From a virus: DNA of 64,000 nt. Position 1 is the stretch's first letter, and each line of letters begins with the position of its first letter. The notes under the pieces are model-generated. The model was not told the origin of the DNA. It did not search any database and saw only the letters and a list, made by a program, of their open reading frames with translations. The stretch lies in IMG/VR virus record IMGVR_UViG_3300029790_000003; one strand, given 5' to 3'. Below, piece after piece: positions 11,453-47,922 of the stretch. Position numbers and translations under genes: made by a program.

Positions 11453-11580
11453 AGATTGATACCTGCCTTTCGTATAAAAGAGTGCCTTGAACTGTATGTA
11501 AATCAACAGGCAGGCGGCAAGGCATTTCCGCTTTTCGATGATCGGTCTAGCCTGTTGGTTTTACCAAAATTAACGGTTAA

Positions 11581-14700: not shown

Positions 14701-17700
14701 CATGCAGCTTGATACTCTGATAGGGCTTTATCTAATGCAGCATCCAATTCTGGAAGGTGTGTACTCCCACCGCCTCCACTTCCGGAAGAACTGGAAGAAT
14801 TGCTAACTTTTGCATCATTTAATTGATTTAATTCATCAAATGAAAGCACAGAAAGACTTTTTTGTAATTTCTTCGCATTGTCATTTGTTTTGTCAAGCCC
14901 GGAAGCTGCATCTTCTGTACTATCTGCAATACTTCCCATATCAACTGCGGCACTTCCTGTTGAGGCAACATAGTCGGACATTTTGATGCCTAAAAGTCTT
15001 CCAATCCACGAAAAAGCTCTCTGAATTGCAATAACAAAGGCGTTCATATATGGAAGAATCTTTGAGATAATTGGAATGAATAATGAACCGATAGTTCTTG
15101 AAAGTGCCGAAAAATTAGATTGCAGTAATCTTAATTGGTTTGCCGGCTGATTTATCGTATTAGCCAGGTCACCCCATGCATACTTTGAACTATTCAAGAT
15201 TGTTATAGTTCTCAGAATAGCCTTGTCCGATTGACTTAAACTTGATACAGTAGCGTCAATTCCAAGATTATAAAGTTCCTGTTGTAAATTTGCCACACGG
15301 ATATTAATGCCGTACTTGTCAATAGCCCGGCTCATTCCGGCTATTCCGGATGCCATATCATTCCATACATTGTTGAACTCAAGGTTCTTTACAGAAGCAA
15401 GGTCTGCCCCGATTTCTGTTAAAGCTTGTGAAACCTTAGTTGATGCATCTGCTGTTGCCCCCATAGATGATGCCATCTGAGCATAGGTGGCTTGATAATT
15501 CATCGTTTGGTTCGGATCAAGTCCGAGGCTCGTGCCTTTTGTTCTAGTCAGATCACCTGCATCTGATACTTCAAATCCAGTCATTTTTTTTGTCAGTTCT
15601 TTTGCACGTTTTTCAAAAGAACCCACATATTCCTCTGCGGATTTTACTCCTGCATTCTGCCACTTGCTCACGCCCAATCCGTCTGTAACTTGTTCGAACG
15701 CAGAATTGAAATAGTTCAATGTTTCAACATAATCAGATGCAGACTTTACAGAATTCCAAAGTGCTTTAATTCCTCTTGTCACAGTAAAAAATTTTGCATA
15801 TAAACTAGCAAGCTGTGAAGTTAATGAGCCAGTCTTTCTTGTGGTTACAGTTGCGGTATTTCCAAAATTAGCTAGTGCAGAGCTTGCAGAGCCAATCATG
15901 GAAGCTAATTTTCTTCCTGCATTTCCAAGTCCATTTGCGGCATTTGATAATCTCGAAAATGAATTCGTAAGAGAATTTGTGGCTTTATTTATTTTCCCAC
16001 TTGCAGTAGCTAACTGTGCCAAAGCTTCTGTCATTCTTACTGTGTTTTCGTTGATTTTTGGTGCGGTTTTCATTACATTGAAGAATGACAATACTTCATT
16101 TGCTAGTGTTCCAAGTTGTCCAGAAGATTTAGAAATTTTACCGCCAGCACTTGCCAATTGTGCAATTGACTGAACAAACCTATTTACGGAATCTGAAATT
16201 CCATCAACACCAATAAAGCTTTCTGTGATAAATTTCAAGCTACTTCCCAATGCAGGTAATTCAGTCGATACATTTGCAATATATTCGCCGGAATTGGCTA
16301 GTCTAGCCATTGAATTAACAAAACGATTAACACTTGCAGATACATCCGGTATTGCCGATAATCCAGATAACTGAGTGATTATCTCGCCAAGTTTCATAGA
16401 ATTAAAATTACTAATATCTACCTGGCTAAATCTGCTAATGGAATTAATGATTGCGTTCAAACCGGAAGCTTTATAATTAACATTTCCCATGGCTCTTAAA
16501 GAATCTGAAAACTGTTTCATTCCATCGGCAATGCTTGTCATCTGTCCTGCATCAATTTCTTTAAGTTTTCCGGTAACTGCATCTTTAATTCCTGTAGTAT
16601 CTACATCCAGAGTGACTTTTACAGCGTTATATTTCAGTTCAGCAACTTTATTGATTGCCTTCTGAATATCCATTGTTATCTTATCCGTATTGATTTTTAC
16701 ATCAATAGGGAGCTGACCGTCCGTACCTTTTAATGCGTCATTAAGTCTTGTTTTTACCTGTTCAGCGAGCTGCTGAGTGGAATCGACAGCCATTCCCCAC
16801 ACTTTGTCCGATGCTTTTGAAGCGTTTTCTCCATAAAGCGATTCTATTGATACTGGCTTTATTGATTCTCTAACTTTTTTGATATTTTCAAGTATGGTAA
16901 TCAGCTGATCTGCTGCATTTATAGTATCTCTTGGTACAAGAGTTGGGAATCTATCTGCTAATTCTTGCCAGGATTTGTCAAGTGTAATGCCTTTGGTTGC
17001 ATCTGTAACAACCTTATTCAGATTGTTTTTCAGAATCTCAGAAAATTCGCCTTTACCAAGGTCGGCTTTTAGCATATCGGAAACATAGATTTTCTTGTTT
17101 TTGAAGTAATTATTGAAATCAATCCATTCTTGTTCTGCTCCATCTAAGTAGCTTCCAAGATTAGCTTTTACTACACTTCCGCTTTTGAGAATCGTATTTC
17201 CAATTTCTTCAACAATGCTTCCAACATTTCCAGAGATTTCTTTTCCGTCAAAAGACTGTGCCATTTCCTTTGCAAGTTCGTTCATTTGAGAACGAACTTT
17301 TGAAGCAGCACCGCCTTTTAAGTTAAATGCTTCAATTAATTGCTTTGAAATGGAAGAGGTATCAATTTTAATATCACGTACTGTTTTATCAATGGCGTAT
17401 TGCAGTTTTTGTGTTTGATCTCCACCCTTGATATCCAAATCAATACTAATCTTTTGATTCTGAAGATTGCTAAGGTTGATTTTACTAAGTGTGTTTAATT
17501 TTGAAATAGCACTATCAAGCCCAGAAGTACGGACATTTCCTAGAGAATTAAAGGCAGACGTAACCCTTCCAAGTTCCCTTGCATAACTACGTAATCCATT
17601 TGTATTAACTCCGCTTAATGCGGAATTAACTTTTGTGAGTTTATTTGAAAGATTAGTCAGCGCACGTACTGCTTTTTCTGTACTACTGCTAATTTGTATA

Positions 17701-17729
17701 TCAAGGGTATCAATGGTATTTTCAGCCAT
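11715..17729 (-). CDS. Tail tape measure protein (2004 aa)
   Basis: Follows MTP and G/GT; RBS AAGGAGGG then ATG at 17729; coiled-coil N-terminus, hydrophobic mid-segments, C-terminal GEAGSEAVLPLE-type motif. Confidence 0.8.
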   Translation of the reverse strand: MAENTIDTLDIQISSSTEKAVRALTNLSNKLTKVNSALSGVNTNGLRSYARELGRVTSAFNSLGNVRTSGLDSAISKLNTLSKINLSNLQNQKISIDLDIKGGDQTQKLQYAIDKTVRDIKIDTSSISKQLIEAFNLKGGAASKVRSQMNELAKEMAQSFDGKEISGNVGSIVEEIGNTILKSGSVVKANLGSYLDGAEQEWIDFNNYFKNKKIYVSDMLKADLGKGEFSEILKNNLNKVVTDATKGITLDKSWQELADRFPTLVPRDTINAADQLITILENIKKVRESIKPVSIESLYGENASKASDKVWGMAVDSTQQLAEQVKTRLNDALKGTDGQLPIDVKINTDKITMDIQKAINKVAELKYNAVKVTLDVDTTGIKDAVTGKLKEIDAGQMTSIADGMKQFSDSLRAMGNVNYKASGLNAIINSISRFSQVDISNFNSMKLGEIITQLSGLSAIPDVSASVNRFVNSMARLANSGEYIANVSTELPALGSSLKFITESFIGVDGISDSVNRFVQSIAQLASAGGKISKSSGQLGTLANEVLSFFNVMKTAPKINENTVRMTEALAQLATASGKINKATNSLTNSFSRLSNAANGLGNAGRKLASMIGSASSALANFGNTATVTTRKTGSLTSQLASLYAKFFTVTRGIKALWNSVKSASDYVETLNYFNSAFEQVTDGLGVSKWQNAGVKSAEEYVGSFEKRAKELTKKMTGFEVSDAGDLTRTKGTSLGLDPNQTMNYQATYAQMASSMGATADASTKVSQALTEIGADLASVKNLEFNNVWNDMASGIAGMSRAIDKYGINIRVANLQQELYNLGIDATVSSLSQSDKAILRTITILNSSKYAWGDLANTINQPANQLRLLQSNFSALSRTIGSLFIPIISKILPYMNAFVIAIQRAFSWIGRLLGIKMSDYVASTGSAAVDMGSIADSTEDAASGLDKTNDNAKKLQKSLSVLSFDELNQLNDAKVSNSSSSSGSGGGGSTHLPELDAALDKALSEYQAAWDKAFEEMNNKANDTADQIVAVFKKIRKAAKPTTESIKKLYSEGLSKLGNFSITALKDLWNNYLKPIGLWMLSDNSGLPRFFNITNDLLNKINWGKLNSSLSSFFTMLQKPTKFVWTGLMDFYEKFLVPVGTWTMNSAIPELVDALTNFGNNIHWDELNSALKNFWDALAPFAQNVGQGIVDFFKDLLDVGENFINTTLPVGLNSIADAIKNISPETAQAIGKGLGQISIAILGFKGLTFIGGIIGKDSPLGKGLALLAKHPYAAMALGIGGIVLALDNFGVIDVDWEWIWSSIDRVKTSIQNFIDKVDWNAIGTALGNLWSAFQPFAEGFADALITGLEGIINIGADLINGIANAINWLAEKLSGVDPEFIKQVGAAFGTLFAIKIAKDIATKIFSFASGIGSLASKLLNFPLDTASSLPTIIGDIGGAAETAATGGLSSFSSTLGTIFGTAGIVFVATALSVKLARGIASITEAAQGGNGILSQTGGYLHDYTGEMESAHKITQDQAEELWKLIEADESAGKSNSEMYDSFIQKLGEFGVSTEDARKILEKYGAQAGVSTGFLEDMTDKAIALGDGVSESAGKFDTTKISISDLKDELYLLSLSSEQFSGDYLTAKDALDSAISGRTYANTEEALDAVYTSLKNAGVPLDELDEKLRKDFPDAVVTMETSAKNSFDGMNTSVKTAVGGITTAVANASSSVSSKTKTGFGLANTAVSTAMAGMKKSTESTMPSIWSKIKNTNDDVETNSKTNWGNSASAVSTALGTMDTDTKDVMGKVMTTIQSYWSSVLINTNQIWEKASGKVDTETGKMKTYTESNLSGISDKIKRLFNVNLTSIGRETAQSFADGMKQVHLPTLTYYISEWRKHDLGGGRTSSTPVYKPNWYAKGGLFNGAQVIGIGEAGSEAVLPLENPRTMKKIADSIVSSSDGSMGLTKEEMAKAVAQGVAMAMSMNSGNKNPQYIMNSIILDGSEIAKAVTKAQNDTDSRFKPSPAY

Positions 17730-17747
17730 TTTATTTATCCCTCCTTT

Positions 17748-17794
17748 TTTACAAAAAAATAAAGGGCAGACAAGAGTGTTAATCCTGCCTGCCC
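17748..17794 (-). terminator. Hairpin plus T-run overlapping the end of the GT ORF, immediately upstream of the TMP start
   Basis: GGGCAG...CTGCCC stem followed (minus) by TTTATTTTTTTGT. Confidence 0.45.
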
Positions 17795-18602
17795 TTTTCA
17801 TGGTTAAGCTCAAAGTTCGCCTGCATGAGTTGCAAGCTTGCCAAAAGTGCGTTTCTCTGTTTTTTCTTTTCTTCTTCGGAAAGTATACCTTCCTGTTTAC
17901 GCTTTTCTTCCTCTGCTGATTCCAGTAAAGGTTTCTTCAAATACTCTGCTTTGGATTTTTTCCCAATTAAAGCATTTGCAACAGCCGTAAATGTAGCCGA
18001 TGTTTGATAAATACCAGCTTGCCAGAGTTCAGCGTCTTTCCTTTTTTGGCGTATCTTTTCAGCTTCGAGATAAGGTTTCAATTCAGCTGGCGTAGAATCC
18101 ATAAATTCTTCTTTGGATACACCGATAGAGAGGTATAAAGGAAGAATCTCTTGGTAAACAACTTCTCGAAAAGTTAATTTTTCTTTTTGTGATCCTGTGG
18201 AAGCTTCGTTGCATTCTTCTCCACTGCCTGTGCTTCTGCTACTGCATTCAGCAGACCGGATAAAAAACCATTTTTCTCCAATTCTTTGTCGAGAAGTTGG
18301 TATAAATCAAATCCGCTTTTCGGATTTTCCTCAGTCCCTTCATCTTCGTAATCATCCAAAAGGTCACAGACTTTATTAAGAACAGCTTCTTTTTCAGAAT
18401 CACTTTCATACCCAAACTCTTCCTTGTGTTTCTTTTGAAGTCCGGCAAGAAGCAGTTCCGGGAGAAGAGAAATCATCTTCTGAAGGCTTCTCTCTTTTCC
18501 ATCTGTAATCCCCTGTACCTTGTCCAGCACATCTGTTTTTGTAAGAAGTCCATATCCAAATACAACCTTATACTCTTTTCCATGTACATTGAAAGTTACC
18601 AT
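17779..18602 (-). CDS. Tail assembly chaperone G-T fusion via programmed -1 ribosomal frameshift
   Basis: The -1 frame downstream of slippery C_AAA_AAG (18183-18189) is open and runs straight into ORF 17779..18102 (..DHKK/EKLTFREVVYQ..MDSTPAELK..). Confidence 0.6.
18174..18602 (-). CDS. Tail assembly chaperone G (142 aa)
   Basis: Acidic protein between MTP and TMP; ends ..HKKKN* with the slippery site 2 codons before the stop. Confidence 0.7.
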   Translation of the reverse strand: MVTFNVHGKEYKVVFGYGLLTKTDVLDKVQGITDGKERSLQKMISLLPELLLAGLQKKHKEEFGYESDSEKEAVLNKVCDLLDDYEDEGTEENPKSGFDLYQLLDKELEKNGFLSGLLNAVAEAQAVEKNATKLPQDHKKKN

Positions 18603-25493: not shown

Positions 25494-26528
25494 TTATTCC
25501 CCCACCTTGGTACCGATCACGATACCACCGTTAGCTTTTGGTGCGACCGGAATGAACATTCCAGAAGCTTTTGTCCAAGTAGTAACCGGATCCTGTGTAG
25601 CCCACATGGACAGAGTAATAAACATTCTGTTTTGCTGTGTGATAAAAGCTCTTGCTTCCTCTTCCTCTGGTGTTGGCCCCCAAAGTCCAGTACCGAAAGA
25701 ACCATCCGGGTTAGCTTCATACAGGGTAAATACGTTTTCTTTAAAGAAACGTCCAGTTTTCCATGCTCCATCTTTTCTGTAACGATATTTTTCATCGCAG
25801 CGATCTACGGTAATCTCATATTCCTGCATAAGAAGGTTTGCAAGTTCCTGTTTGGTCAGAAGACGTTTGTTAGCCGCACCAAGAACAGCGGTTTGCATAG
25901 CGGTGTTGTTTCTCATATAATTAATCATTTTTAAGGAAGTGAGGGCTTTATTAACAACAAATCCCTTTTCTTGTGCAACATCAATCATCTTTTGAATATC
26001 GCCCATAATATCAGAATCCGGCTTAGACCAGTCAGTAAGGGTGATTTTTGCTTCTGACGGAACGCCAAGATCAATTGGAAGATCTACATTGTTCTCATGG
26101 ATTTTAAGAGAACCAGTTCCCATGATCTGCCCTTTCATAACTTTTGTTCTTGCCAGAACTGCTTCAAATGAATTACTTACATCGTCAAACACAAATTCGG
26201 TAAGAGACTGATCGTCCGGGACGCCGTTTTCAATAGCCATGCGAAGAGATTCTGACTGATTCATTTTCTCTTTAATGAAAAGTTTTTCGGTCAGTACCTT
26301 CTCAAAGCTTGGTCTCTCTCCAATTCTTGCCTCTGTATCAAGCGCATGAACATAAGCAACTCTAGGAAGTTGCTGCCCGCTCATAAGTCTGTAGTATTTT
26401 GCTTTCATAAATTGGGTTTTTACATCCGGGAAGATAACGTCAAGTGCTCCCGGACGTTTAACTGCATAATTCTGTGAATAGTTAATTCTCTCTTCCAGTG
26501 TAATACTGGTCAATACGTTATAATTCAT
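25494..26528 (-). CDS. Major capsid protein (lambda gpE-like, 344 aa)
   Basis: RBS AAGGAGGT; size and position after scaffold; gpE-family-like sequence. Confidence 0.75.
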   Translation of the reverse strand: MNYNVLTSITLEERINYSQNYAVKRPGALDVIFPDVKTQFMKAKYYRLMSGQQLPRVAYVHALDTEARIGERPSFEKVLTEKLFIKEKMNQSESLRMAIENGVPDDQSLTEFVFDDVSNSFEAVLARTKVMKGQIMGTGSLKIHENNVDLPIDLGVPSEAKITLTDWSKPDSDIMGDIQKMIDVAQEKGFVVNKALTSLKMINYMRNNTAMQTAVLGAANKRLLTKQELANLLMQEYEITVDRCDEKYRYRKDGAWKTGRFFKENVFTLYEANPDGSFGTGLWGPTPEEEEARAFITQQNRMFITLSMWATQDPVTTWTKASGMFIPVAPKANGGIVIGTKVGE

Positions 26529-27735: not shown

Positions 27736-29232
27736 TCATTCTTCGTTAGATGGAGAATTTGCCATTGGTTCTGTTTTGGACGGATTTTGAAACTTTCCGT
27801 CAAGTAATTGCTGTGCTTTCTGCATTTCCGCTTCCGGGTCTGCCAGTTCCGGGTAAATAGTTCCCAGATACGGTAAACTCATTTCGTAGACTTTCTGCGG
27901 ATCACTAAATAAACCGCAAGTAATCAGTGCAATAAGCGGATGAATTTTATTTTTAAACAGATAATCGAGTGCCTGTGCTTTTACAAGCATATTGTCTGTT
28001 GGGTTTCTGGTTATCTTTACATCAAAATCTCTGGTTGAGATATTAACATCATTTGATGTACCACGGATAATATTCAGAATAATTCTAGCAGATTCCTTTT
28101 CAGCTTCCTTGGTGAATGCTTCTACCAATTTTGCATCTCTTTCTGCGAAGTCCCATCCATTACGAAGGTATACAGCATTTCCTGTATCACCTCCGCTATT
28201 GCTTTGGCGGTTTGGCATTGCTTCCACAATCAGCATGTTATTGTAGATATCATCCTTTGCAACCTGGCTCTCTGATTGATTCAATTCAGCGGTCATCAGT
28301 TCAACATCTGACTGACAGCCATTTCCAGTATCTTTTACAGAGATGGCACCAAGTTTTACCATTTTCAAAAACTCGTTTTCATCTACCTCGCAGTTCTTGA
28401 ACTTCATAAAGGCTTGCACAAACTGTTCAACGCCATTTAATCTATCAGACTGGTATTTGTTAATTGCATCAAATAAGGTGATTGCAATTTCAACATCTGA
28501 AAGCCTGTCATGATTATTCGGGCATTCAACAATAGGAATTCCTCCAAAACCGTTGATGCCATATTCGGTTACTTTTCCATTCGTGATTTTGAAAAACTGT
28601 TTCTTTGAATAACATAAGTAGTATTGTTGCTCATCTTCATCCTTCAAAATCTGAACGGACAGCATTGGTTTTCCGTTCCTCTGCGAATATACAATGTAAC
28701 AATCACCAGGATACGGAATAAAGATTCTAAACGGCGGTAAATCTCCGTTTTCTGTCCAGTCCTCTTCTTTCAGAATAGCCTTATAAGAAGTTCCTGTTGC
28801 ACTTTGGTATATTGCTCTCTGGATGTTTCTTGCATCTGCATTGGCTTCATCCAGATAATCATTCAGCAAATCAACTTGCTCATTTATTTTTTTGTCTGCA
28901 TTTTTCTTTTTACATACATATTGGATTGGTTCCCCGCAAATCTGTCCAGCTTTAAATTTTACAGTTTCAAATGCGTGATTTTCAACCACTCTGTTATTAA
29001 CTTCTGGACGTACTATTTTATTTCGATACAATATCGGCTGATCACCTTTCATGTACCGATACAAGTAATCAATCAATGTTCGATTTCTATTATGTATGCC
29101 AATTGTATCTGATACTACTTTTACTACATTTTGTGGAGTGATTCGGTCAACGCCTGTGTAGGCTACTTTTCGCCCGAAATCACCTCGGCATAAATCTACA
29201 AAATTCATTGTATTTCTCACGAGCCGAACCAT
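27736..29232 (-). CDS. Portal protein (498 aa)
   Basis: Size and position after terminase; SPP1-gp6-like. Confidence 0.75.
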   Translation of the reverse strand: MVRLVRNTMNFVDLCRGDFGRKVAYTGVDRITPQNVVKVVSDTIGIHNRNRTLIDYLYRYMKGDQPILYRNKIVRPEVNNRVVENHAFETVKFKAGQICGEPIQYVCKKKNADKKINEQVDLLNDYLDEANADARNIQRAIYQSATGTSYKAILKEEDWTENGDLPPFRIFIPYPGDCYIVYSQRNGKPMLSVQILKDEDEQQYYLCYSKKQFFKITNGKVTEYGINGFGGIPIVECPNNHDRLSDVEIAITLFDAINKYQSDRLNGVEQFVQAFMKFKNCEVDENEFLKMVKLGAISVKDTGNGCQSDVELMTAELNQSESQVAKDDIYNNMLIVEAMPNRQSNSGGDTGNAVYLRNGWDFAERDAKLVEAFTKEAEKESARIILNIIRGTSNDVNISTRDFDVKITRNPTDNMLVKAQALDYLFKNKIHPLIALITCGLFSDPQKVYEMSLPYLGTIYPELADPEAEMQKAQQLLDGKFQNPSKTEPMANSPSNEE

Positions 29233-29752: not shown

Positions 29753-31447
29753 CTATCTCCTTCCCCACATAAAATTTTTGGTTGCTTTTACTTCTGCAAA
29801 TCTTTTGCCGGCAAGCGTTATTGCAAGCTGCGTAACTCCATCGGCAGCGTCATCATGTTCATTATCACCAATATAGACGAATGTAGTTAATTCATCCATA
29901 GCCTTTTGATACTGTTTATCTTGATATTTCGGAGCCAAAAATATAAAATTTTGCTTAACATCCCCGGAATATTGATTTATTTTTTCTTTTTTTGCTTGTT
30001 TTGAAGGTGCTTTTGTACTTGTCGTGCTGCAAGCGTATTTATGTTCTTTCAAGCGTTCATTTACATAATAGGCATACATATCTCCACCATTATTTGCTTC
30101 AAAATTGATAGATTGAATATTATTTCCCATGATTCTTCCAACAACTAATGGCAATGTTCCTTCTTTTGGCGCTGTGCTAAAAATCCAGTCATATATATAC
30201 ACATCTCCATTTTCGTATTCTGCACCTACTGGCATTGATAAGCTATCGCCACCACCCCACGCAACATCGCAAGCAGAAACATTTTTAACAAATCCACCTT
30301 CTGGGAGAACGCCGTTATAATATCTCAATTCGTCAGCTGCAAACACAATTCCTTCACGCAAGAAGGGCTTTTGCTGATATTTGGCTTCCCATTCGTTAGC
30401 GTCTAACCTAGCTTTCATATCAACATAATATTTTGTTGAAAATCCAACGCCATACTCATAATCGAAATTGGATTCACCATCATCGTTCAAAGCTGGAATT
30501 TTTCTAAACCGATACATTGGATTATCCCGATTTAGCTTCTCTATTTTTCCAAGAGGGTCATATAAATTCCATCTGGTTCCAACCATAAGTTCTCTTGCAC
30601 CATCAATCTTACGGTCAACCATCTTGTTTAGATATTCTTGATATGTGTTTTCTAATCGGGTAGGACTTAATGAATGTTGCCTATCTCTTACAAGGTCATC
30701 CACGTACAAATACCCATCGGAAGAAATGTCAACGGCACCTGTCCAAGTACCTTCAATACCACGGCAAGCCATTGTTGCAAATCGGTCTGGCTTGTCCAGG
30801 TTTATTTCAAAATCATCAGCACTCTGTTTTTGAAGTTTCGACTGTGGAAAAATTTCACTATAGTTGTATTCCTGTGTATTAATGAGATTAAGAAGTTCTC
30901 CGTAAAATCCTTTTGCCAGTTTTCCAGAATGACCACCCATGGCACTATGGCTATTTGGTCTTTTACCCATTATCCATGACATAAAGAAAATACACATAGT
31001 GGATTTTCCAACACGGCTCGGAAGCGATAAACCGTAAAACTCTATCTTTCTTTCTTCCAAATCTTGTAGGTCTTGGGCTACCACATGTAGTGTTTTTCTT
31101 CGTGGAATATAAAATTTCTTGCTGTCTGGTCTATTTTTTTCCATATAAAGCAAGTAACTTTCAAATAAATGTGGTGCTTCCAACAACAAATACTGCCAGT
31201 AGATATCATCAAAATCACCACTGCCAGTTAATGCAGCACACTTCTCTGCTATGTTATGTGAGTATTGACTTACTTTCATAGCCATTTTCCGTGCTTCTTG
31301 GTTCTTTCTGAAAGGAAGGTCAATATTCATATTTAAGAGCAAATCAAGGCAATCTTTTTGATTCTGATAGATTGTCATGTCACTACTGATAATCTGATTC
31401 AGTACTGCCCGATACCATTCAAGCGAACCTTCTGTAATTTTTCCCAT
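29753..31447 (-). CDS. terL: Terminase large subunit (564 aa)
   Basis: Walker A-like LPSRVGKST; C-terminal nuclease-like region; precedes portal. Confidence 0.75.
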   Translation of the reverse strand: MGKITEGSLEWYRAVLNQIISSDMTIYQNQKDCLDLLLNMNIDLPFRKNQEARKMAMKVSQYSHNIAEKCAALTGSGDFDDIYWQYLLLEAPHLFESYLLYMEKNRPDSKKFYIPRRKTLHVVAQDLQDLEERKIEFYGLSLPSRVGKSTMCIFFMSWIMGKRPNSHSAMGGHSGKLAKGFYGELLNLINTQEYNYSEIFPQSKLQKQSADDFEINLDKPDRFATMACRGIEGTWTGAVDISSDGYLYVDDLVRDRQHSLSPTRLENTYQEYLNKMVDRKIDGARELMVGTRWNLYDPLGKIEKLNRDNPMYRFRKIPALNDDGESNFDYEYGVGFSTKYYVDMKARLDANEWEAKYQQKPFLREGIVFAADELRYYNGVLPEGGFVKNVSACDVAWGGGDSLSMPVGAEYENGDVYIYDWIFSTAPKEGTLPLVVGRIMGNNIQSINFEANNGGDMYAYYVNERLKEHKYACSTTSTKAPSKQAKKEKINQYSGDVKQNFIFLAPKYQDKQYQKAMDELTTFVYIGDNEHDDAADGVTQLAITLAGKRFAEVKATKNFMWGRR

Positions 31448-31522: not shown

Positions 31523-32476
31523 TTATTTAACATTCTCATCAGCTGTCATGTCTCTTGTATCTACGATGGTAGAAGTGTTACCTCCTTGAATCTTTGGTAC
31601 TTCACCATTCCATTTATCAATCTTCTGTTTTTCAATCAGTTCGGGAGTAAGAGATTCTGCGATTTTTCTATTTGCTTCTGCTTCAGCTTCTGCTTTAATC
31701 TTAATTGCTTCTGCTTTTCCTTCTGCATCAATCTTTGCCTGTTCCGCTTGGATAGATGCTTTTTCTTTTTCCTGTTCAGCAGCAATCAGTGCAACTTCTT
31801 TATCTTTATCAGCTTGTACTTTGGCTGTTTTAGCTTCAATGTTAGCAAGTTCTAATTCTTGCTGTGCATTTACCTTCTTCTGAATTGCAGCCTGTGTTTC
31901 ATCATCGGTGGAAATAGAAGTAAAGTTTACTGTATCAATAATAATTCCGTATGGCTCAAACTTCTGCTTAAGATATTCGTCAAGTGCTTCATTCAGTTCC
32001 TGGCGTTTATCACCGAAAACATCTGTTACTGGATACTTCGCAGTTACTTCCTGCGTCCATGCTTTCATCTTAGGCTTAATAAAAGTATTTTTCACAGATT
32101 CCCCGGATTGACCTTTGAACTGAGTAAATACATCAGTTACTCTGCTCTGATCGAATTTATAAGAAAATTCAAGGTCGACTTGAAGCGATTTTCCATCTGC
32201 CGTTGGTGTCTTGAAACTTTCATCTTTTGGAGAATCGCCCTTATCCTCAGATGTAAGATAAGACTGCTCGATTCCAACGGAATACAGTGAAGTTTTTACT
32301 GTAGGTGAAATCAAATGCCATCCCTGTGTAAGTACATTCTTAGAGATTCCTCCGTTCATTTTGTACTCTACCGCAATGTAACCAGCCGGAACTCTCACAC
32401 TGCACTTTGCAACACATATAAGTCCTGCAATGATTACAACAGCTAATCCAATTCCACCTAAAAGTCCTTTTTTCAT
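31523..32476 (-). CDS. SPFH/band-7 (prohibitin/stomatin-like) domain protein (317 aa)
   Basis: N-terminal TM anchor, SPFH core, C-terminal A/E/K coiled coil (AEQEKEKASIQAEQAKIDAEGKAEAIKIKAEAEAEA). Confidence 0.75.
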   Translation of the reverse strand: MKKGLLGGIGLAVVIIAGLICVAKCSVRVPAGYIAVEYKMNGGISKNVLTQGWHLISPTVKTSLYSVGIEQSYLTSEDKGDSPKDESFKTPTADGKSLQVDLEFSYKFDQSRVTDVFTQFKGQSGESVKNTFIKPKMKAWTQEVTAKYPVTDVFGDKRQELNEALDEYLKQKFEPYGIIIDTVNFTSISTDDETQAAIQKKVNAQQELELANIEAKTAKVQADKDKEVALIAAEQEKEKASIQAEQAKIDAEGKAEAIKIKAEAEAEANRKIAESLTPELIEKQKIDKWNGEVPKIQGGNTSTIVDTRDMTADENVK

Positions 32477-32637
32477 TTATTATCCTCCTCTTTTTGACTT
32501 TCGTCTTTATTTAACTCATCAATAGCATTTCTGCCAATGTGGTTCAATAATTTACCTAGTGGTTGAAATAATTTGTAAAGCAGGAACCATACTACTGCCG
32601 CTCCACATATCACTAGAAATATAAATACTGGATTCAT
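32473..32637 (-). CDS. Small membrane protein (54 aa) translationally coupled to the SPFH gene (NfeD-like partner candidate)
   Basis: ATG at 32637; single TM (FIFLVICGAAVVWFLLY); stop TGA overlaps the SPFH ATG (ATGA). Confidence 0.45.
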   Translation of the reverse strand: MNPVFIFLVICGAAVVWFLLYKLFQPLGKLLNHIGRNAIDELNKDESQKEEDNK

Positions 32638-32853
32638 TCAATCACCTAACTTTCTACAAATTTCAATAAAATCTGGCTTACTAAGTTCTTTCAGCTTGTT
32701 AGCATATTTTGGAAATTCATGTGTATATATCGGATGACCTAAAAGTTTTTCTGCGTATTCGTATGCAAGTTTTCGGTCATCCCCTGTAAGCATACAAATT
32801 CCTGTATAGGTTTCAATTACTACAGCTTCTTGTTTTGTCATACATATCCTCAC
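32638..32853 (-). CDS. Hypothetical protein (71 aa)
   Basis: ORF only. Confidence 0.4.
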   Translation of the reverse strand: MRICMTKQEAVVIETYTGICMLTGDDRKLAYEYAEKLLGHPIYTHEFPKYANKLKELSKPDFIEICRKLGD

Positions 32854-32862
32854 TTGATAAAA

Positions 32863-33057
32863 TCATCTTTTTAATTCCGAAAAAATATTTTCAATTACTT
32901 TCCACTCTGCGAATACTGCCATGAGCAATAATGGTACTGCCGAAAACCCCCAATGATTTTCAATCATCATTTGAATTGTGGCTATCAAATAATCTGCTAC
33001 CCACTTGAATATAATAAAATTAGTGATTATACAACATATCTTTCTGATTTTATTCAT
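32863..33057 (-). CDS. Small membrane protein (64 aa)
   Basis: Hydrophobic ORF. Confidence 0.35.
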   Translation of the reverse strand: MNKIRKICCIITNFIIFKWVADYLIATIQMMIENHWGFSAVPLLLMAVFAEWKVIENIFSELKR

Positions 33058-33447: not shown

Positions 33448-33780
33448 TCAGTTCAACCCATGAACCTTTCTTAGATTTGCATACCGGTCAACAAGTACGT
33501 CCAATGCGGTCTGAAGCTGATTGATTGTAATGCAGTCATCCTGGTGGCGTTGTTCATACCATTCTATAGATGGATGACCAGTATCTACATTTTCAATTCC
33601 ATCAATCGGAATCTTCCAGTTATCATTTTCAAGAAGCTTTTGGTTAAGTGTCTCCGATAAAGCTTTATAGTCCAGGATTATATGCTGTTTTTTCTCGCAT
33701 TCATCAGCCAAACGAACAACTTCATTTTTCAACTGTTCTTCTGTCCAGTTTGCCATATCCTCAAATTTCATATTTACCAC
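33448..33780 (-). CDS. Hypothetical protein (110 aa)
   Basis: ORF only. Confidence 0.45.
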   Translation of the reverse strand: MVNMKFEDMANWTEEQLKNEVVRLADECEKKQHIILDYKALSETLNQKLLENDNWKIPIDGIENVDTGHPSIEWYEQRHQDDCITINQLQTALDVLVDRYANLRKVHGLN

Positions 33781-34049
33781 CTCTGTCTTCGAAAATTGTC
33801 TCTTCCAAGCATAAATTTTTCGGCTGAAAAATTATCCTCTACATCAATATGTGCTTCACGGTCTTGCACCTCATATCCGTTTGGAGTTAATTCAAGTTTT
33901 GCAGTATATTCAGCGCCACAATTGGTGCATTGCCATGTCACATTTAAAAAGATTTCTTTTTCTATAAAAGGTTTTGTGTAATCGGAATTTTCGCATTTTA
34001 ACATTCCACCGCAAACAGGACAATTGCGTTTATCAAGTAAATCTAGCAT
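33774..34049 (-). CDS. Zinc-ribbon protein (91 aa)
   Basis: CPVCGG...CTNCGAEY. Confidence 0.45.
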   Translation of the reverse strand: MLDLLDKRNCPVCGGMLKCENSDYTKPFIEKEIFLNVTWQCTNCGAEYTAKLELTPNGYEVQDREAHIDVEDNFSAEKFMLGRDNFRRQRW

Positions 34050-34475: not shown

Positions 34476-34630
34476 CGTGTTTTCTGCAATTCTTACAACT
34501 TTTTTCGTTCATAAATTACCTCGATTTAGAAAAATCCAGTGTGCCGACTTGAACGGCATAAATCTCCCAACGAGAAGCACTGGAACTTTAAGGGGGAAAA
34601 TGCAACTTCTGGCAATGGCAATTTGCCAGA

Positions 34631-34702
34631 TAGAAACAACAGGAATCGAACCTGTGTCACATGATATTCAATATCATTGCTCTACCACTGAGCTATGTTT
34701 CT
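34631..34702 (-). tRNA. tRNA, class-I cloverleaf with anticodon UGA (Ser-type anticodon but short variable arm)
   Basis: Manual fold: acceptor AGAAACA/TGTTTCT, D-arm GCTC-AGTGGTA-GAGC, AC arm ATGAT-ATTGAAT-ATCAT, T-arm ACAGG-TTCGATT-CCTGT, discriminator A. Confidence 0.6.
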
Positions 34703-34925
34703 TTTTTCATCATAAAACGCTAAACTAGATGATTTTTTTAGAATCCCCGACTATCACTCCTCACGGGCATTGGTCTTATCTCTCTAAAAAGTTTTTGCAC
34801 AAGATCGCTAGTGAGTTGCGTCTATATGCCTGCACGAATGCACGCAAACGCATCCGCATTTATGTGCAAGAACTAACAATAGCTATGCTAAAGTCAGATG
34901 TCCTATCTACACTTGGTAGATGGAA

Positions 34926-34997
34926 TAGCAGGAGACGGATTCGAACCGCCGTTTCCATTGATATGAGCCATGTGAGATTCTGCTTCTCTATCCTGCT
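34926..34997 (-). tRNA. tRNA with anticodon CAU (Met/Ile2-type)
   Basis: Manual fold: acceptor AGCAGGA/TCCTGCT, AC arm CATGG-CTCATAT-CAATG (one G-A mismatch), T-arm GGCGG-TTCGAAT-CCGTC. Confidence 0.5.
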
Positions 34998-35166
34998 ATG
35001 TACATGTTTGGAAGAACCATTTCAGCACGTTCACTTATTGACTACTAGAGGAAGTCACTATATCACCGATAAACAGTACGTATTCGGAACTCGGTTATAC
35101 ATTCCTACGCACTGCTCTGTGCTTTTCCTACCACCAAACTTTCAGTCTCCAAACAATCGGAAAGGA

Positions 35167-35235
35167 TGGATTCGAACCATCAAGACCTAGTCGACTAGCC
35201 CGTTCCCAGTTACTTGCACTTTCCGAATAACCCGG
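35167..35235 (-). tRNA. tRNA-like element, non-canonical (possible tRNA relic)
   Basis: Good acceptor (CGGAAAG/CTTTCCG) and T-arm (GATGG-TTCGAAT-CCATC), but only 69 nt; no foldable D/anticodon arms; contains palindrome CTAGTCGACTAG. Confidence 0.3.
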
Positions 35236-35516: not shown

Positions 35517-35589
35517 TAGAAGCTCTGGGATTCGAACCCAGGACTTACGACTTATGAGGCCGTTGCTCTTACCGCTGAACTAAGCTTCC
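35517..35589 (-). tRNA. tRNA with anticodon CAU (Met/Ile2-type)
   Basis: Acceptor GGAAGCT/AGCTTCT (G1-U72), D-arm GTTC-AGCGGTA-GAGC, AC arm ACGGC-CTCATAA-GTCGT, T-arm CTGGG-TTCGAAT-CCCAG. Confidence 0.65.
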
Positions 35590-35739: not shown

Positions 35740-35812
35740 CTGGGCTAACTGGATTCGAACCAGCAAATGCAGCAGTCAAAGTGCTGTGCCTTAACCATTT
35801 GGCGATAGCCCA
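35740..35812 (-). tRNA. tRNA-Gln (anticodon UUG)
   Basis: Acceptor TGGGCTA/TAGCCCA with U1-A72 and discriminator G (Gln-like), AC arm CAGCA-CTTTGAC-TGCTG, T-arm GCTGG-TTCGAAT-CCAGT. Confidence 0.65.
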
Positions 35813-36048: not shown

Positions 36049-36564
36049 TTATTCTGCAAAAATCCAATCCTCTGCTAACATATCTGCTTGAGATGCAAAC
36101 CATCCCATCTGTACGCCAGATGTTCCGACAAAAGCAATGGCTTTGTTTCCGATTGCATCATGTTCACAATTTACAATTTCATTATCAGCAGTCTTATATG
36201 AAATTCCAGTGGCAATCTGAATGTACTGTTTCTTTCCATTCCAGCCTTTACGAGACACTTTAAGTCCTCTTTTCAGATAACGGATAGCGTCACCAAATCC
36301 AAATGTTGACTGACCACCAAGAACACCACAGTTATTCTCATCAGCAATCATCCAGTCATCTCGCTGTGTGTGCATGAAAGTATATTCTACTCTCTGTGTT
36401 TCACGGATATCGAGAACTGCTCCCTGGCCTTGATCGGAATCTTTTGGTCTGCAATGAATCATAATCGTCTGTTTTTCATCGTCCCAACACCGGTAACCAT
36501 TCCATCCTGGAAGTTTCACTTTTGCTCCCTGTTTCATAAGTTTTAATGCTTCTGAAAATTTCAT
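36049..36564 (-). CDS. Tandem DUF2829-domain protein (171 aa)
   Basis: Start moved to MKFSEALKLMKQG (RBS AAAGGAGGA); two M.F.EAL..K.G.KV.R.GW-type modules. Confidence 0.55.
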   Translation of the reverse strand: MKFSEALKLMKQGAKVKLPGWNGYRCWDDEKQTIMIHCRPKDSDQGQGAVLDIRETQRVEYTFMHTQRDDWMIADENNCGVLGGQSTFGFGDAIRYLKRGLKVSRKGWNGKKQYIQIATGISYKTADNEIVNCEHDAIGNKAIAFVGTSGVQMGWFASQADMLAEDWIFAE

Positions 36565-36578
36565 TTCTATATCCTCCT

Positions 36579-36773
36579 TTACCTCGTGCAAATTAAGAAA
36601 ATATTCAGTGCGAAACATATTTCTAAACAAATACAGAATAAAATCTGTATTACGCTTGTCTTTCCTTCTTCGTCCAGTATGGCTAAAGTACCGGCAAGAA
36701 CCAGAACGAAAAATGCAAGATTTACAGCTGTTCCGATTACATTAAGTGCATTCATTTTCTTTTTCCTCCCCAA
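36579..36773 (-). CDS. Small membrane protein (64 aa)
   Basis: Hydrophobic ORF. Confidence 0.35.
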   Translation of the reverse strand: MGRKKKMNALNVIGTAVNLAFFVLVLAGTLAILDEEGKTSVIQILFCICLEICFALNIFLICTR

Positions 36774-38076: not shown

Positions 38077-38541
38077 TCAACTTACAATTTCAATTGGATA
38101 TCCTAAGTATGCTTCTAACTCTGAAACAGTCAGTTTGCGTGGTTTCTTTATTTCAACATAAGCACGCTGTATGATATTGTCTTTTGTCTTTGCGATTGCC
38201 TTTCCAGTATAACTTTCAAGCTCTTCGTTTGCATATACATTCAAATGTTCATATCCATATGCCCGGCACCATCTTGCAGCTGAATCAACAATTTTTCTTA
38301 GCTCTTCTTGCTCATCACCAAACAACTCCGAATATCTAACCGCTTTGTTGAAATCACTCGAACTTACTTCATAAGGAGCCACAACATGTTTATATGGACT
38401 TCCAATAAAATGAAAGTATCTATGTGATTCCATTGCTTTTTGGCCTTTTGGTAAGTTGAATCCTTGAGCTATTGCTTTTTTTAAGCAACTGTTCTGATTC
38501 AACATTGTTTTCTGTAACAATACACTTGTTTGTAAAATCAA
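38077..38541 (-). CDS. Hypothetical protein (154 aa)
   Basis: ORF with a 4-nt overlap to the resolvase gene. Confidence 0.45.
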   Translation of the reverse strand: MILQTSVLLQKTMLNQNSCLKKAIAQGFNLPKGQKAMESHRYFHFIGSPYKHVVAPYEVSSSDFNKAVRYSELFGDEQEELRKIVDSAARWCRAYGYEHLNVYANEELESYTGKAIAKTKDNIIQRAYVEIKKPRKLTVSELEAYLGYPIEIVS

Positions 38542-39128
38542 TCATCTTTATCCCCCTCTAAAAGTTTATATAACGTACTTCTTGAAACTCCTATAATATT
38601 GGCAAATTGTACCTTTGTTATTTCCCCTCTTTGCCAGCTACGTTTAGTTTCGTTGAAAAGTTCCTTATCTATCTCTTTTTTGGCACGACCTTTATATTTG
38701 CCCTTGGCTTTTGCAATTAAAATACCTTCTTTTTGTCGCTGACGAATATTTTCCCTTTCTCTTTGTGCTACATATGAGAGAAGCTGCAAAACTATGTCTG
38801 CGATCAATGTTCCTGTCAAGTCTTTATTTTGCGTAGTATTAAGTAACGGCATATCCTGTACAATAATATCTGCTTCAATCTCTTTTGTGATTCTTCTCCA
38901 TTCAGCAATAATCTCTTCGTAGTTTCTTCCAAGACGGTCAATTGAATGGATTACCAGAATGTCACCTTTTTGAAGAGAAGCAATCATTTTCTGGTACTCT
39001 GGACGATTGAAGTCTTTCCCAGATTTTTTATCCATATAAATTCTTTCAACACCATCTGCTTTCATTGCTTCAATTTGTCTCGCTTCATTTTGCTCTACTG
39101 TTGAAACTCTTACATATCCTACTTTCAT
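38538..39128 (-). CDS. Small serine recombinase (resolvase/invertase family, 196 aa)
   Basis: Start MKVGYVRVSTVEQ (RBS CAGGAGCG); catalytic Ser motif; C-terminal HTH (IIGVSRSTLYKLL). Confidence 0.85.
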   Translation of the reverse strand: MKVGYVRVSTVEQNEARQIEAMKADGVERIYMDKKSGKDFNRPEYQKMIASLQKGDILVIHSIDRLGRNYEEIIAEWRRITKEIEADIIVQDMPLLNTTQNKDLTGTLIADIVLQLLSYVAQRERENIRQRQKEGILIAKAKGKYKGRAKKEIDKELFNETKRSWQRGEITKVQFANIIGVSRSTLYKLLEGDKDD

Positions 39129-39158
39129 ATATACACGCTCCTGTTTCTTTATAAAACA

Positions 39159-39187
39159 ATTATACACTATAATGTGTGTGTTTTCAA
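39159..39187 (-). promoter_or_regulatory. Sigma-70-type promoter for the resolvase gene (TTGAAA-17-TATAAT)
   Basis: Minus-strand -35 at 39182-39187, -10 at 39159-39164, 17-nt spacer. Confidence 0.6.
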
Positions 39188-46128: not shown

Positions 46129-47841
46129 TTATAGTGCTAAAAGGTACTTATATTTGAAAAATACCATATCTTGTGTCTTAATGCAAGTTTTCCTACTAAA
46201 TATCTTGTGTTGTTCTGAATGTAGAGTAAAAATCATATCGTCAGAACGGCGCAAGGGAAACCCCCATTTTTCAAGGCTTCCAGACCTCAATTGAAATGTT
46301 AGTGTTGCACATGTAACCGCCAACGGTTCAACGGTAATTTTCTCAAAAAGTTCATTAACAATCTGTCTGTTAATATCTTGTGGAGTAACACCTTTGAACT
46401 TTTCTAGCTGTTCTTTAATAGCACTTAATTGTATTTCTACTGGCTCTGGACTTTTGGTATTTTGGATTTCTAGAATATGACTCTCAATCTGCTTTATCTG
46501 CTTCACGTATTCTTTATTTCTTGAAATAAATTCATCATCAGATATTTTTCCATCCAGATTATATTCCAGTATTTTTTCACGTTTTTGTTTTAACAGATCA
46601 ATCTGTTTTTCAAGTCGTGAGATTTCGTTTTTATTGTCTGGAATGTTTTTGATCGAGGACTGCAAAATTTCAAAATATTCCTCCAAAATGCTGTCAATAT
46701 TTTCAGAAGATTTATTTATCAATTCTGCAATTATTTCTTTCAGTTCTGATTCTGCCAGCCCGAACGAATTGCAAGAAGCTGCTCCGTTTTTTATTTTATA
46801 GCTGCACACCCATCGAACATCCTCTTTTCCTCTGATATAATGTTGCTTCATCCAGTATGGTGCTCCGTCATTTGCGCAGAAAAGTTTTCCAGTGAAAATA
46901 TTTTCGCTTTTAAAAGAGGTTCTTCTTGATTTTATGGCTTCTCCACGCTCTCTTAAATATGCGTTTGCCTTTTCCCAGGTAGCTTCATCAATGATCTGCG
47001 GTACTCTTGAACCATCATCCTTAAACATTATCCATTCTGACTGCGGAAGAAATTCTTGTTTCTTGGTGAACATATCGACAACCTTTACTTTTCCTCCACA
47101 ATAGTATCCTTTGTATTTTGGATTCCGAATAATATTTTTTATGACATCCCGGTTGATTTTCCCACCTTTGAAACTTCTGTATCCCATATCCCAGAGCTTT
47201 TTTTCGATTCTTGGCGTAGATATTCCGGAAGCGTAATCTTGAAAAATCATTCGAACCATGTCCGCTTCTTCTGGAACCAGTTCGAGCTTTCCTTGATTGT
47301 TTGAGTATCCATACATTCTGTGCCCGAGAACAACACCATTTTTGATTGACTGTGCGTGTCCAAATTTTACTCTTGAAGAAAGCTTGCGGATTTCGTCCTG
47401 CGCTACCCCAGCCATAATAGTAAGTCGGAACTCACTATCATCATCAATAGTGTTAATTCCATCGTTTTGGAACCACACGCATACGCCATAAGATAACAAT
47501 TCCCTGGTATATTGGATGCTGTCAAGAGTATTTCGTGCAAATCTTGAAATTTCTTTCGTAATAATCATGTCAATTTTTCCGAGCTTTGCATCTCTGAGCA
47601 TTCTTTGAAATTCTTCTCTTTTATCCGCATGTATTCCAGAAATACCATCATCAATGTAAGAACCAGCAAACTTCCATCTGTTGTTAGAATGTATCAGATC
47701 TTCAAAATGTTCCTCCTGGTGCTTAATGGATGCTTGCTGTTCAACTTTTTCAGTAGAAACCCTGGCATAATAAGCAACATTTAGTTCAATGTCGTAAATA
47801 GAGCAATTTCTTAATTTTTCTCTGACATAATAAATATTCAT
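46129..47841 (-). CDS. Large serine recombinase (phage integrase, ~570 aa)
   Basis: Start MNIYYV (RBS AAGGGAG); YYARVSTEKVEQQ catalytic motif; recombinase domain, zinc-ribbon cysteines and a long C-terminal coiled coil. Confidence 0.85.
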   Translation of the reverse strand: MNIYYVREKLRNCSIYDIELNVAYYARVSTEKVEQQASIKHQEEHFEDLIHSNNRWKFAGSYIDDGISGIHADKREEFQRMLRDAKLGKIDMIITKEISRFARNTLDSIQYTRELLSYGVCVWFQNDGINTIDDDSEFRLTIMAGVAQDEIRKLSSRVKFGHAQSIKNGVVLGHRMYGYSNNQGKLELVPEEADMVRMIFQDYASGISTPRIEKKLWDMGYRSFKGGKINRDVIKNIIRNPKYKGYYCGGKVKVVDMFTKKQEFLPQSEWIMFKDDGSRVPQIIDEATWEKANAYLRERGEAIKSRRTSFKSENIFTGKLFCANDGAPYWMKQHYIRGKEDVRWVCSYKIKNGAASCNSFGLAESELKEIIAELINKSSENIDSILEEYFEILQSSIKNIPDNKNEISRLEKQIDLLKQKREKILEYNLDGKISDDEFISRNKEYVKQIKQIESHILEIQNTKSPEPVEIQLSAIKEQLEKFKGVTPQDINRQIVNELFEKITVEPLAVTCATLTFQLRSGSLEKWGFPLRRSDDMIFTLHSEQHKIFSRKTCIKTQDMVFFKYKYLLAL

Positions 47842-47922
47842 AGTGCATTTCTCCCTTAATAAACAGGGAGTGGAATCATATAAAGTATAACACCTCATAT
47901 AAATCCACTCAATACATTGTCG

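Follow-up and report, generated by a model that had tools for sequence, protein, structure and literature searches.

Several described systems come close to the gene dealt with here, a class-I transfer RNA (tRNA) gene with the anticodon UGA at positions 34631–34702 (minus strand) of a 64,000-nucleotide stretch of viral DNA (IMG/VR virus record IMGVR_UViG_3300029790_000003; the whole of this stretch is called the window). The gene is shown below to be one allele, with G at canonical position 35, of a single anticodon-polymorphic locus at which one tRNA body carries CCA, UCA, or UGA. Among these systems are the opal suppressor tRNAs of Trp type from gut phages (Borges et al., 10.1101/2021.08.26.457843), with which the sister alleles share the UCA anticodon, the class-I body, gut Firmicutes-type phages as carriers, and in-frame TGAs; suppressor tRNAs have been noted already in phages that otherwise use the standard code (10.1101/2021.08.26.457843). 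Unlike those suppressors, the window allele has UGA, its phage family is not recoded, the body also occurs with CCA and UGA, and the suppressor copies mostly have C at position 33 in place of the universal U.

Remolding of tRNAs and alloacceptor shifts, for example in metazoan mitochondria (PMC4783518), likewise proceed by a point change in the anticodon and are betrayed by the body; in place of a history of duplication and replacement, the present locus has its states side by side in the population, as a polymorphism among near-identical genomes. A clash between the anticodon and the class or identity of the body is also known from nematode nev-tRNAs (PMC4300185) and from anticodon variants of human tRNA-Ser (PMC12993449), in which charging is assured by the anticodon-blind leucyl- and seryl-tRNA synthetases (LeuRS, SerRS), whereas the scaffold considered here seems anticodon-dependent and its UGA form may be uncharged. 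Phage tRNAs that evade anticodon nucleases (PMC10264068) resemble the locus in lying in clusters in accessory or anti-defence regions and in varying chiefly in the loop; they keep the anticodon and alter the flanking loop, whereas here it is the anticodon that changes, with no variation at positions 32, 37, and 38. A short arm combined with a UGA anticodon is also found in tRNA-Ser of metazoan mitochondria (PMC9976931). A specialised mitochondrial SerRS, which recognises the T loop, acts on that tRNA, whereas the ancestry here is Trp or suppressor and not Ser. To our knowledge, bacteria have nothing comparable to this enzyme. Mistranslation of the tRNA-ProX/ProRSx type involves a dedicated synthetase nearby; here none was found among the ~40 of ~90 window proteins scanned.

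The locus differs from these known systems in that a balanced polymorphism lies on an invariant body, U33 is replaced in most suppressors, and the commonest anticodon has no known matching synthetase. Literature searches for an anticodon-polymorphic tRNA locus of this kind found no description. Phage suppressor tRNAs are known as tools for the recoding of stop codons; their origin, tuning, and loss are poorly documented. In hundreds of near-identical genomes from the human gut, the locus presents an intact tRNA body on which nothing but the anticodon segregates, between Trp, opal-suppressor, and Ser-codon forms. It provides a natural allelic series for the cost of read-through in a standard-code phage, the tolerance of synthetases for a G35 Trp-type tRNA, and non-decoding uses. 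In practice, annotation pipelines would call the gene tRNA-Ser but the sister alleles tRNA-SeC or Sup, and so hide that all belong to one gene.

Structure of the tRNA gene

The gene and the positions referred to below are as follows.

34631–34702, minus strand: class-I tRNA, anticodon UGA, 72 nt (ARAGORN call tRNA-Ser(tga), Rfam RF00005, cloverleaf fold)
34670–34668, minus strand: anticodon, U34 G35 A36
34669–34671, minus strand: variable canonical sites U33 (34671), U34 (34670), and G35 (34669); with position 1 (34702) the only common polymorphic sites

A genuine tRNA gene with anticodon UGA is confirmed at this place. Written by structural element, the sequence is AGAAACA UA GCUC AGUGGUA GAGC A AUGAU AUUGAAU AUCAU GUGAC ACAGG UUCGAUU CCUGU UGUUUCU A. 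The acceptor (7 bp), D (4 bp), anticodon (5 bp), and T (5 bp) stems are all Watson-Crick; the anticodon loop has 7 nt with U33 and A37, the variable loop has 5 nt (GUGAC), and the acceptor end has A1-U72, G2-C71, and A73, the CCA not being encoded. The Rfam RF00005 score (67.2 bits, E = 1e-13; gathering score 29) is the highest among the four tRNAs of the window, the minimum-free-energy fold is the cloverleaf (-19.5 kcal/mol, z = -2.4), and by inspection the tertiary partners U8-A14, G15-C48, G18/G19, U54-A58, and G53-C61 are all there. A preliminary description of this DNA, made from the letters alone, had reported a clean fold with a 7-bp acceptor and standard D and T arms, and an AUUGAAU loop with U33, A37, and anticodon UGA. 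The fold is upheld by ARAGORN, by the Rfam score, and by the cloverleaf minimum, and the loop by the ARAGORN anticodon (tga); the coordinates match the ARAGORN call exactly, whereas the strand, which is minus, had been left out.

The anticodon stem has one register only, and no other triplet can sit at positions 34–36; the description had named an alternative fold with a different triplet there as a way in which it could fail, and none exists. A shifted anticodon (GAA/CAA register) was ruled out by the single stem register and would place U at position 37. A tRNA on the reverse strand with the anticodon UCA was ruled out as well, there being no tRNA score on the plus strand.

Anticodon alleles

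Two censuses of the locus were made: exact-pattern scans of IMG/VR with parts of the body fixed and the anticodon free (148 contigs), and a separate scan of public gut metagenome assemblies with all seven loop positions free (63 contigs). In both collections the same 72-nt body was found with five loop alleles and no others.

AUUGAAU, anticodon UGA (window type): 88 IMG/VR contigs, 25 metagenome contigs
ACUCAAU, anticodon UCA, C33: 40 IMG/VR contigs, 23 metagenome contigs
ACUGAAU, anticodon UGA, C33: 12 IMG/VR contigs, 3 metagenome contigs
AUCCAAU, anticodon CCA, Trp: 6 IMG/VR contigs, 8 metagenome contigs
AUUCAAU, anticodon UCA, U33: 2 IMG/VR contigs, 4 metagenome contigs

Comparison with the tRNAs of related phages, which had been proposed in the preliminary description, has thus given an identical body with CCA, UCA, or UGA in sister phages. 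UCA lies on this body in 42 IMG/VR and 27 metagenome contigs, mostly with C33, the efficient suppressor form (U33 with UCA) being rare (6 of 211). Positions 32, 36, 37, and 38 are invariant in the 63 contigs of the free-loop scan, and no allele without A36 occurred in the scans of either collection. G35 is found on U33 and C33, and on A1 and U1 backgrounds; position 1 is A or U, with a U1-U72 mismatch in a third of the copies, and its state is linked to the type of upstream flank. A sample chosen by the large terminase (TerL), unbiased as to the tRNA, gave the same picture of the alleles.

CCA, UCA, and UGA form a chain of single-base steps, and the UGA anticodon derives by a single base change from that of a suppressor or of tRNA-Trp, the gene not being the remainder of a tRNA-Ser that has lost its arm. 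One ACUCAAU genome has an in-frame TGA, ~600 nt away, that is common to all ACUGAAU genomes; this is consistent with UGA having arisen from UCA on that background, the reverse direction being also possible.

Other sources of the variation were rejected. The anticodon arm is perfectly palindromic around position 35, and hairpin inversion or template switching would swap AUUGAAU and AUUCAAU; these two are very unequal (88 vs 2 in IMG/VR; 25 vs 4 in the metagenomes), and ACUGAAU is unreachable by this route. Such an imbalance speaks for selection on the RNA strand. A diversity-generating retroelement was ruled out, as just three adjacent sites vary and no reverse transcriptase domain turned up among the scanned proteins. 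Homogenisation with a host tRNA and a role as phage attachment site (attP) were ruled out by the lack of the body in any genome of 185,579 species representatives; the sole match in that search was a tRNA-Thr(CGU) in a Faecalimonas contig. No phage codon that co-varies with the anticodon (TGG/TGA/TCA) was found within ~8 kb either side of TerL.

Conservation and history of the alleles

Selection was compared in genomes sampled by TerL, with a mean TerL difference of 3.8%. Polymorphic sites make up 26.5% of the third and 1.2% of the second codon positions of TerL, and 1 of 68 sites of the tRNA body; per-site heterozygosity reaches 0.41 at position 33, 0.19 at 34, and 0.45 at 35, and is 0 at the 67 other body sites. 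In the alignment of the tRNA cluster, 192 of 222 sites of the upstream spacer and 55 of 74 sites of the neighbouring CAU tRNA are polymorphic, against four in the polymorphic tRNA, namely position 1 and canonical positions 33, 34, and 35; the conserved block begins exactly at the 5' end of the tRNA. Within the G35 class alone, tRNA sites have a heterozygosity of 0.011, and third positions in the nearest genes one of 0.06–0.28. Constraint on the body equals that on second codon positions, within the UGA class too. Because it is conserved in that class relative to neighbouring third positions, the UGA allele is not a decaying relic, and the suggestion that the tRNA may be non-functional, made in the preliminary description, is contradicted by the strong purifying selection. 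Loop alleles are dispersed across the TerL tree and are in linkage disequilibrium with a haplotype ~900 nt downstream, which indicates a few long-lived alleles that have been reshuffled by recombination.

Recent disabling of the gene would be another way to arrive at a conserved body: G35 would have killed a suppressor, and the allele would have risen by hitch-hiking or recombination before decay had begun. Such an event would suit a young family (TerL amino-acid identity 98–100% in the best 80 loci), the linkage disequilibrium just described, and the visible decay of a second CAU tRNA and of a tRNA-like remnant in the same cluster. It is nevertheless improbable, as genes neighbouring the G35 class are polymorphic at 22–79% of third positions and the tRNA body at almost none, the conserved block starts at the very 5' end of the tRNA, and G35 is combined with either base at position 33 (U or C) and at position 1 (A or U).

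Amino-acid identity

Over the 50 nt outside the anticodon arm and the variable loop, the tRNA is identical at 46 of 50 positions to tRNA-Thr(CGU) of gut phages and of a Faecalimonas contig (Faecalimonas sp. JBQKED010000008.1, L090, positions 1868–1939; also contigs L095, L105, L106, and L109), and a phage tRNA-Lys(UUU) has the same D and T arms; phages of gut Firmicutes thus use a single scaffold for several isotypes. The synthetases for Trp, Thr, and Lys (TrpRS, ThrRS, LysRS) are all anticodon readers, and for this reason the amino-acid identity of the shared scaffold is probably determined mainly by the anticodon. A generic scaffold of this sort, with an identity set by the anticodon, would also account for A73, which is unusual for a bacterial tRNA-Trp. 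The nearest annotated phage tRNAs give no isotype, being Thr, Phe, Ile, Met, and Arg at 76–82% identity.

Serine identity depends on a long variable arm, and bacterial tRNA-Ser conserves G1-C72 and G73 (PMC9976931). The tRNA at 34631–34702 has G2-C71 and an anticodon for a Ser codon in common with tRNA-Ser; it has no long arm, no G73, and no G1-C72. The mismatch with tRNA-Ser that had been pointed out earlier on account of the short variable arm (5 nt) is thereby borne out and extends to A73 and A1-U72. With these three departures the amino-acid identity must come from elsewhere, and the gene is shown not to be a serine tRNA. The contrary proposal, that it truly accepts serine and supplies UCA decoding, with SerRS charging it through features of the acceptor stem despite the short arm, is most improbable. 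It may draw on G2-C71, A3-U70, and C11-G24, which match what we take to be minor Ser determinants of E. coli; on a proteome compatible with UCA as Ser; and on the other tRNAs of the cluster, which read CAA (Gln UUG) and AUG in an AT-rich phage with heavy use of A-ending codons. SerRS ignores anticodons. An anticodon-blind SerRS acting on this body would also serylate the CCA and UCA alleles, with Ser at UGG as a result; the long arm is missing, A73 and A1-U72 stand in the place of G73 and G1-C72, and the anticodon derives from UCA and CCA alleles on the same body.

TrpRS of E. coli makes three base-specific hydrogen bonds to C35 and three to A36, and checks C34 by size only (PMC12135181); G73A costs ~9-fold in B. 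subtilis (PMC12135181), and A1-U72 is a minor determinant typical of bacterial tRNA-Trp (PMC9976931). The window allele has A1-U72 and lacks the CCA anticodon with its C35 as well as G73, all alleles having A73. The CCA and UCA alleles fit TrpRS and G35 does not, because the enzyme reads C35 and A36 and tolerates U34. The window also lacks both marks of an opal suppressor (Sup-UCA), the anticodon UCA and in-frame TGAs in its own genes. We know of no synthetase that reads a UGA anticodon, and no synthetase domain was found in the scanned window proteins, which included most of the larger non-structural ones; ~18 kb of the ~82-kb genome lie outside the window.

Genetic code and opal suppression

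The window phage uses the standard code. Its large open reading frames become no longer when TGA is read as sense, and its stop codons are 48 TAA, 26 TGA, and 9 TAG, 31% of the genes ending in TGA; recoding of TGA was ruled out by frames that are intact under the standard code and by the use of TGA stops. By the pairing rules the anticodon UGA reads UCA and UCG. Codon substitution among relatives clearly speaks for UCA as serine in the phage proteome: where TCA codons of the window differ in relatives, 81% of the changes lead to other Ser codons; serines encoded by TCA are the most conserved Ser codon class (4.3% non-synonymous replacement vs 9–22%); and the small serine recombinase has TCA for its catalytic Ser, where relatives with all three anticodons have either TCA or TCG.

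In-frame TGAs within otherwise intact conserved reading frames occur almost only in genomes with C33 loop alleles. In the DUF7736 gene (window positions 32638–32853), R27 or G18 has become TGA in 8 loci, all of them ACUCAAU; these sequences have diverged since, and the frame is still open downstream. In the gene at 33774–34049, codon 32 is TGA in 11 loci with ACUGAAU and in one with ACUCAAU. Genomes of the window type have three in-frame-TGA locus-events in 251,000 aligned codons, of which two are probably an alignment artefact (L011) and one is credible. By this pattern of nonsense codons, the case that the UCA allele suppresses UGA is good, though not conclusive. Purging of TGA stops from suppressor-type genomes was not seen (odds ratio 0.92, p = 0.66). 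Window genes that end in TGA have a nearer back-up stop, at a median of 5 codons vs 17 for TAA/TAG (83 minus-strand genes; Mann-Whitney p = 0.006), which may trace past opal read-through and is confounded by overlapping gene junctions.

Three small open reading frames (64, 71, and 54 amino acids) at 32473–33057, minus strand, lie in one frame and are separated by TGA, the middle one being DUF7736. A reading in which they are joined across TGA was rejected; all three have start codons of their own and look like distinct proteins.

State of the UGA allele

Taking these results together, we tentatively favour, at somewhat less than even confidence, a selected non-Ser tRNA, the G35 allele of a switchable locus, in which suppression is off, the anticodon is an orphan, and charging is poor. 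Judged by its identity elements, the G35 tRNA is most likely made and folded and poorly or not aminoacylated. The change of C35 to G would end pairing with UGG and UGA and would remove the main TrpRS determinant, while SerRS, the cognate enzyme for a UGA anticodon, would need the long variable arm that is absent here; poor charging would be expected because G35 lacks the TrpRS base and no SerRS determinant is present. The G35 tRNA would then represent a suppression-off, orphan-anticodon state, with UCA not recoded and kept as serine by the tRNA-Ser of the host. As the body is under purifying selection in the G35 state, the allele would keep some activity, such as residual decoding or a role as uncharged tRNA.

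Several points weigh against this reading. Poor aminoacylation is predicted from identity rules of E. coli and B. subtilis, which may not be those of the host. Constraint is as strong in the G35 class as in the translating C35 class, positions 32 and 36–38 of the loop included, and this would most simply mean that the G35 tRNA also works on the ribosome. An off-switch could be reached by many mutations; only C35 to G, a transversion, is seen, and it is the commonest state, which suggests that G35 is favoured in its own right. Class-I tRNA(UGA) genes also occur in large arrays of unrelated phages beside class-II tRNA-Ser(GCU), a hint that the array genes may really serve UCA. The evidence for suppression comes from few independent mutational events and is not significant when normalised to TAA/TAG nonsense events.

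Another reading is an active, perhaps low-level, missense tRNA, charged by a synthetase other than SerRS and inserting a residue other than Ser at some UCA or UCG codons; the preliminary description had mentioned such a tRNA. We regard it as unlikely, though deserving serious attention. ThrRS would be the most plausible enzyme, since G35 is among the bases it reads and a phage tRNA-Thr with A73 has 92% identity to the top half of this tRNA; TrpRS or LeuRS (A73) acting at a residual level would be alternatives, and minimal tRNAs with A73 can be leucylated (PMC9976931). The constraint pattern shared with the translating UCA allele (loop positions 32 and 36–38 included), the specific preference for G35 over other inactivating changes, and the recurrence of class-I tRNA(UGA) genes in unrelated phage arrays would all suit it. 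ThrRS, however, also needs U36, and TrpRS needs C35; no synthetase gene was found among the ~40 proteins scanned; UCA serves as Ser across the proteome, catalytic Ser included; and the TCA serines, as the most conserved Ser class (4.3% vs 9–22%), are the opposite of what long-term mistranslation would predict. A wider proposal is a scaffold maintained in natural populations as a three-state switch between Trp, UGA read-through, and a reader of sense codons, the UGA-anticodon form, the commonest state, being either an active tRNA that inserts Thr, Trp, or Leu (or, by some other route, Ser) at UCA during infection or a permanently uncharged tRNA for a frequent codon, by which the phage would set off starvation signalling in the host; this is possible, if on the doubtful side.

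Class-I UGA tRNAs with canonical loops of the CUUGAAA type were seen in the unrelated viral contigs L242, L291, L302, L336, and L029. Some of these unrelated tRNAs lie in arrays of 8–14 tRNAs with a long-arm tRNA-Ser(GCU), and one has a U1-U72 mismatch and A73, as in the U1 form of the polymorphic tRNA.

Cluster and flanking elements

The UGA tRNA is the final gene of a cluster Gln-Met-Met-X, the order of which is kept in relatives. The cluster and the elements next to it are as follows.

36049–36630, minus strand: gene for a Tad2-like anti-Thoeris protein, directly upstream of the tRNA cluster (Pfam PF11195, E = 7e-26)
35740–35812, minus strand: tRNA-Gln(UUG), first gene of the cluster (ARAGORN; Rfam 62.7 bits)
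35517–35589, minus strand: tRNA(CAU), Met1 (ARAGORN; Rfam 65.8 bits)
35157–35225, minus strand: weak tRNA-like remnant (Rfam tRNA 27.1 bits, below the gathering score)
34925–34998, minus strand: tRNA(CAU), Met2, damaged in the window (ARAGORN; Rfam 46.8 bits)
34608–34630, minus strand: 8-bp hairpin UCUGGCAA-AUUGCCA-UUGCCAGA, directly after the discriminator base (terminator-like scan and fold)
34536–34584, minus strand: tRNA-like minihelix without anticodon arm, ~50 nt downstream of the tRNA (fold)

The Tad2-like neighbour suggests that the cluster sits in an anti-defence region. This bears on a quite unlikely further explanation, in which the role of the tRNA does not depend on its anticodon: it would draw off a host defence that targets tRNAs (an anticodon nuclease or a toxin that modifies the acceptor end), as bait or as a stand-in substrate, or would be an uncharged-tRNA signal (stringent response, T-box), and the variation at 33–35 would stem from an arms race or from a need to avoid harmful decoding. 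The position of the cluster beside the anti-Thoeris gene would be in keeping with this, as would the gene for a DUF2828/vWA protein directly upstream of the tRNA in some relatives, the rarity of the efficient suppressor (U33 with UCA, 6/211) relative to attenuated or disarmed forms, and the restriction of the variation to 33–35, nucleotides that known anticodon nucleases recognise; escape from such nucleases by loop changes has been proposed for phage tRNAs (PMC10264068). On the other side, known escape tRNAs have an unchanged anticodon, loop positions 32 and 36–38 are invariant and the loop is thus not simply free, the UCA allele appears to act in translation, and no nuclease or partner protein was identified.

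In about one-third of the relatives (e.g. L012, L052, and L140) a 2-kb insert lies between the second CAU tRNA and the polymorphic tRNA. It encodes a protein of 483 amino acids with DUF2828, DUF7788, and vWA domains, directly upstream of the tRNA, and is linked to the U1 form of the tRNA (U1-U72 mismatch). A PDB sequence search with the DUF2828/vWA protein gave nothing significant.

Met2 of the window has A in place of G18 of the D loop and a G30-A40 mismatch in the anticodon stem; in many relatives of the window phage its D loop and stem are intact. The remnant at 35157–35225 has good acceptor and T arms and a truncated, almost loopless anticodon arm, and in some relatives a tRNA-Tyr(GUA) sits between the two CAU tRNAs in its place.

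The hairpin at 34608–34630 is conserved along with the tRNA (heterozygosity 0.063) and resembles a terminator or processing site. The minihelix at 34536–34584 (heterozygosity 0.026) is made up of a 7-bp acceptor-like stem (UCCAGUG/CACUGGA), a 4-bp hairpin, and a T-arm-like hairpin (UGCCG-UUCAAGU-CGGCA), and matched no Rfam family. Some phage tRNAs are associated with a Theta ribozyme, a minimal ribozyme like that of hepatitis delta virus (HDV), with its cleavage site abutting the tRNA 3' end (PMC10879173). A search of the conserved 3' block for a Theta (HDV-like) ribozyme or other known RNA gave no Rfam ribozyme match even at E = 10.

The phage and its relatives

The window phage is temperate and siphovirus-like, with 38% G+C and almost every gene on the minus strand. 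Its other main features are as follows.

46129–47898, minus strand: large serine recombinase
38538–39167, minus strand: small serine recombinase of the resolvase/invertase type (motif GYVRVSTVEQ)
29753–31447: large terminase (TerL)
27736–29232: portal
25494–26528: major head protein
11715–17813: open reading frame of 2032 amino acids, probably the tape measure (by size and position)

Relatives by TerL number 557 IMG/VR contigs, the best 80 of which have 98–100% amino-acid identity; contigs of the family are typically 78–85 kb long and come from human gut samples. The window phage thus belongs to an abundant family of temperate human-gut phages. A look-up of TerL for assignment of the host gave matches in Logan metagenome assemblies only. 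The closest cultured phage is Clostridium phage Maintenon (host [Clostridium] innocuum), with a TerL only 38.6% identical; upstream of its TerL, at the corresponding place, stand tRNA-Trp(CCA), tRNA-Gln(UUG), and a tRNA-Met.

An int-alpA RNA motif (RF02996, 45.4 bits, above the gathering score) lies at 11485–11557, minus strand, at the start of a gene for an HNH endonuclease of 423 amino acids, just downstream of the putative tape measure gene.

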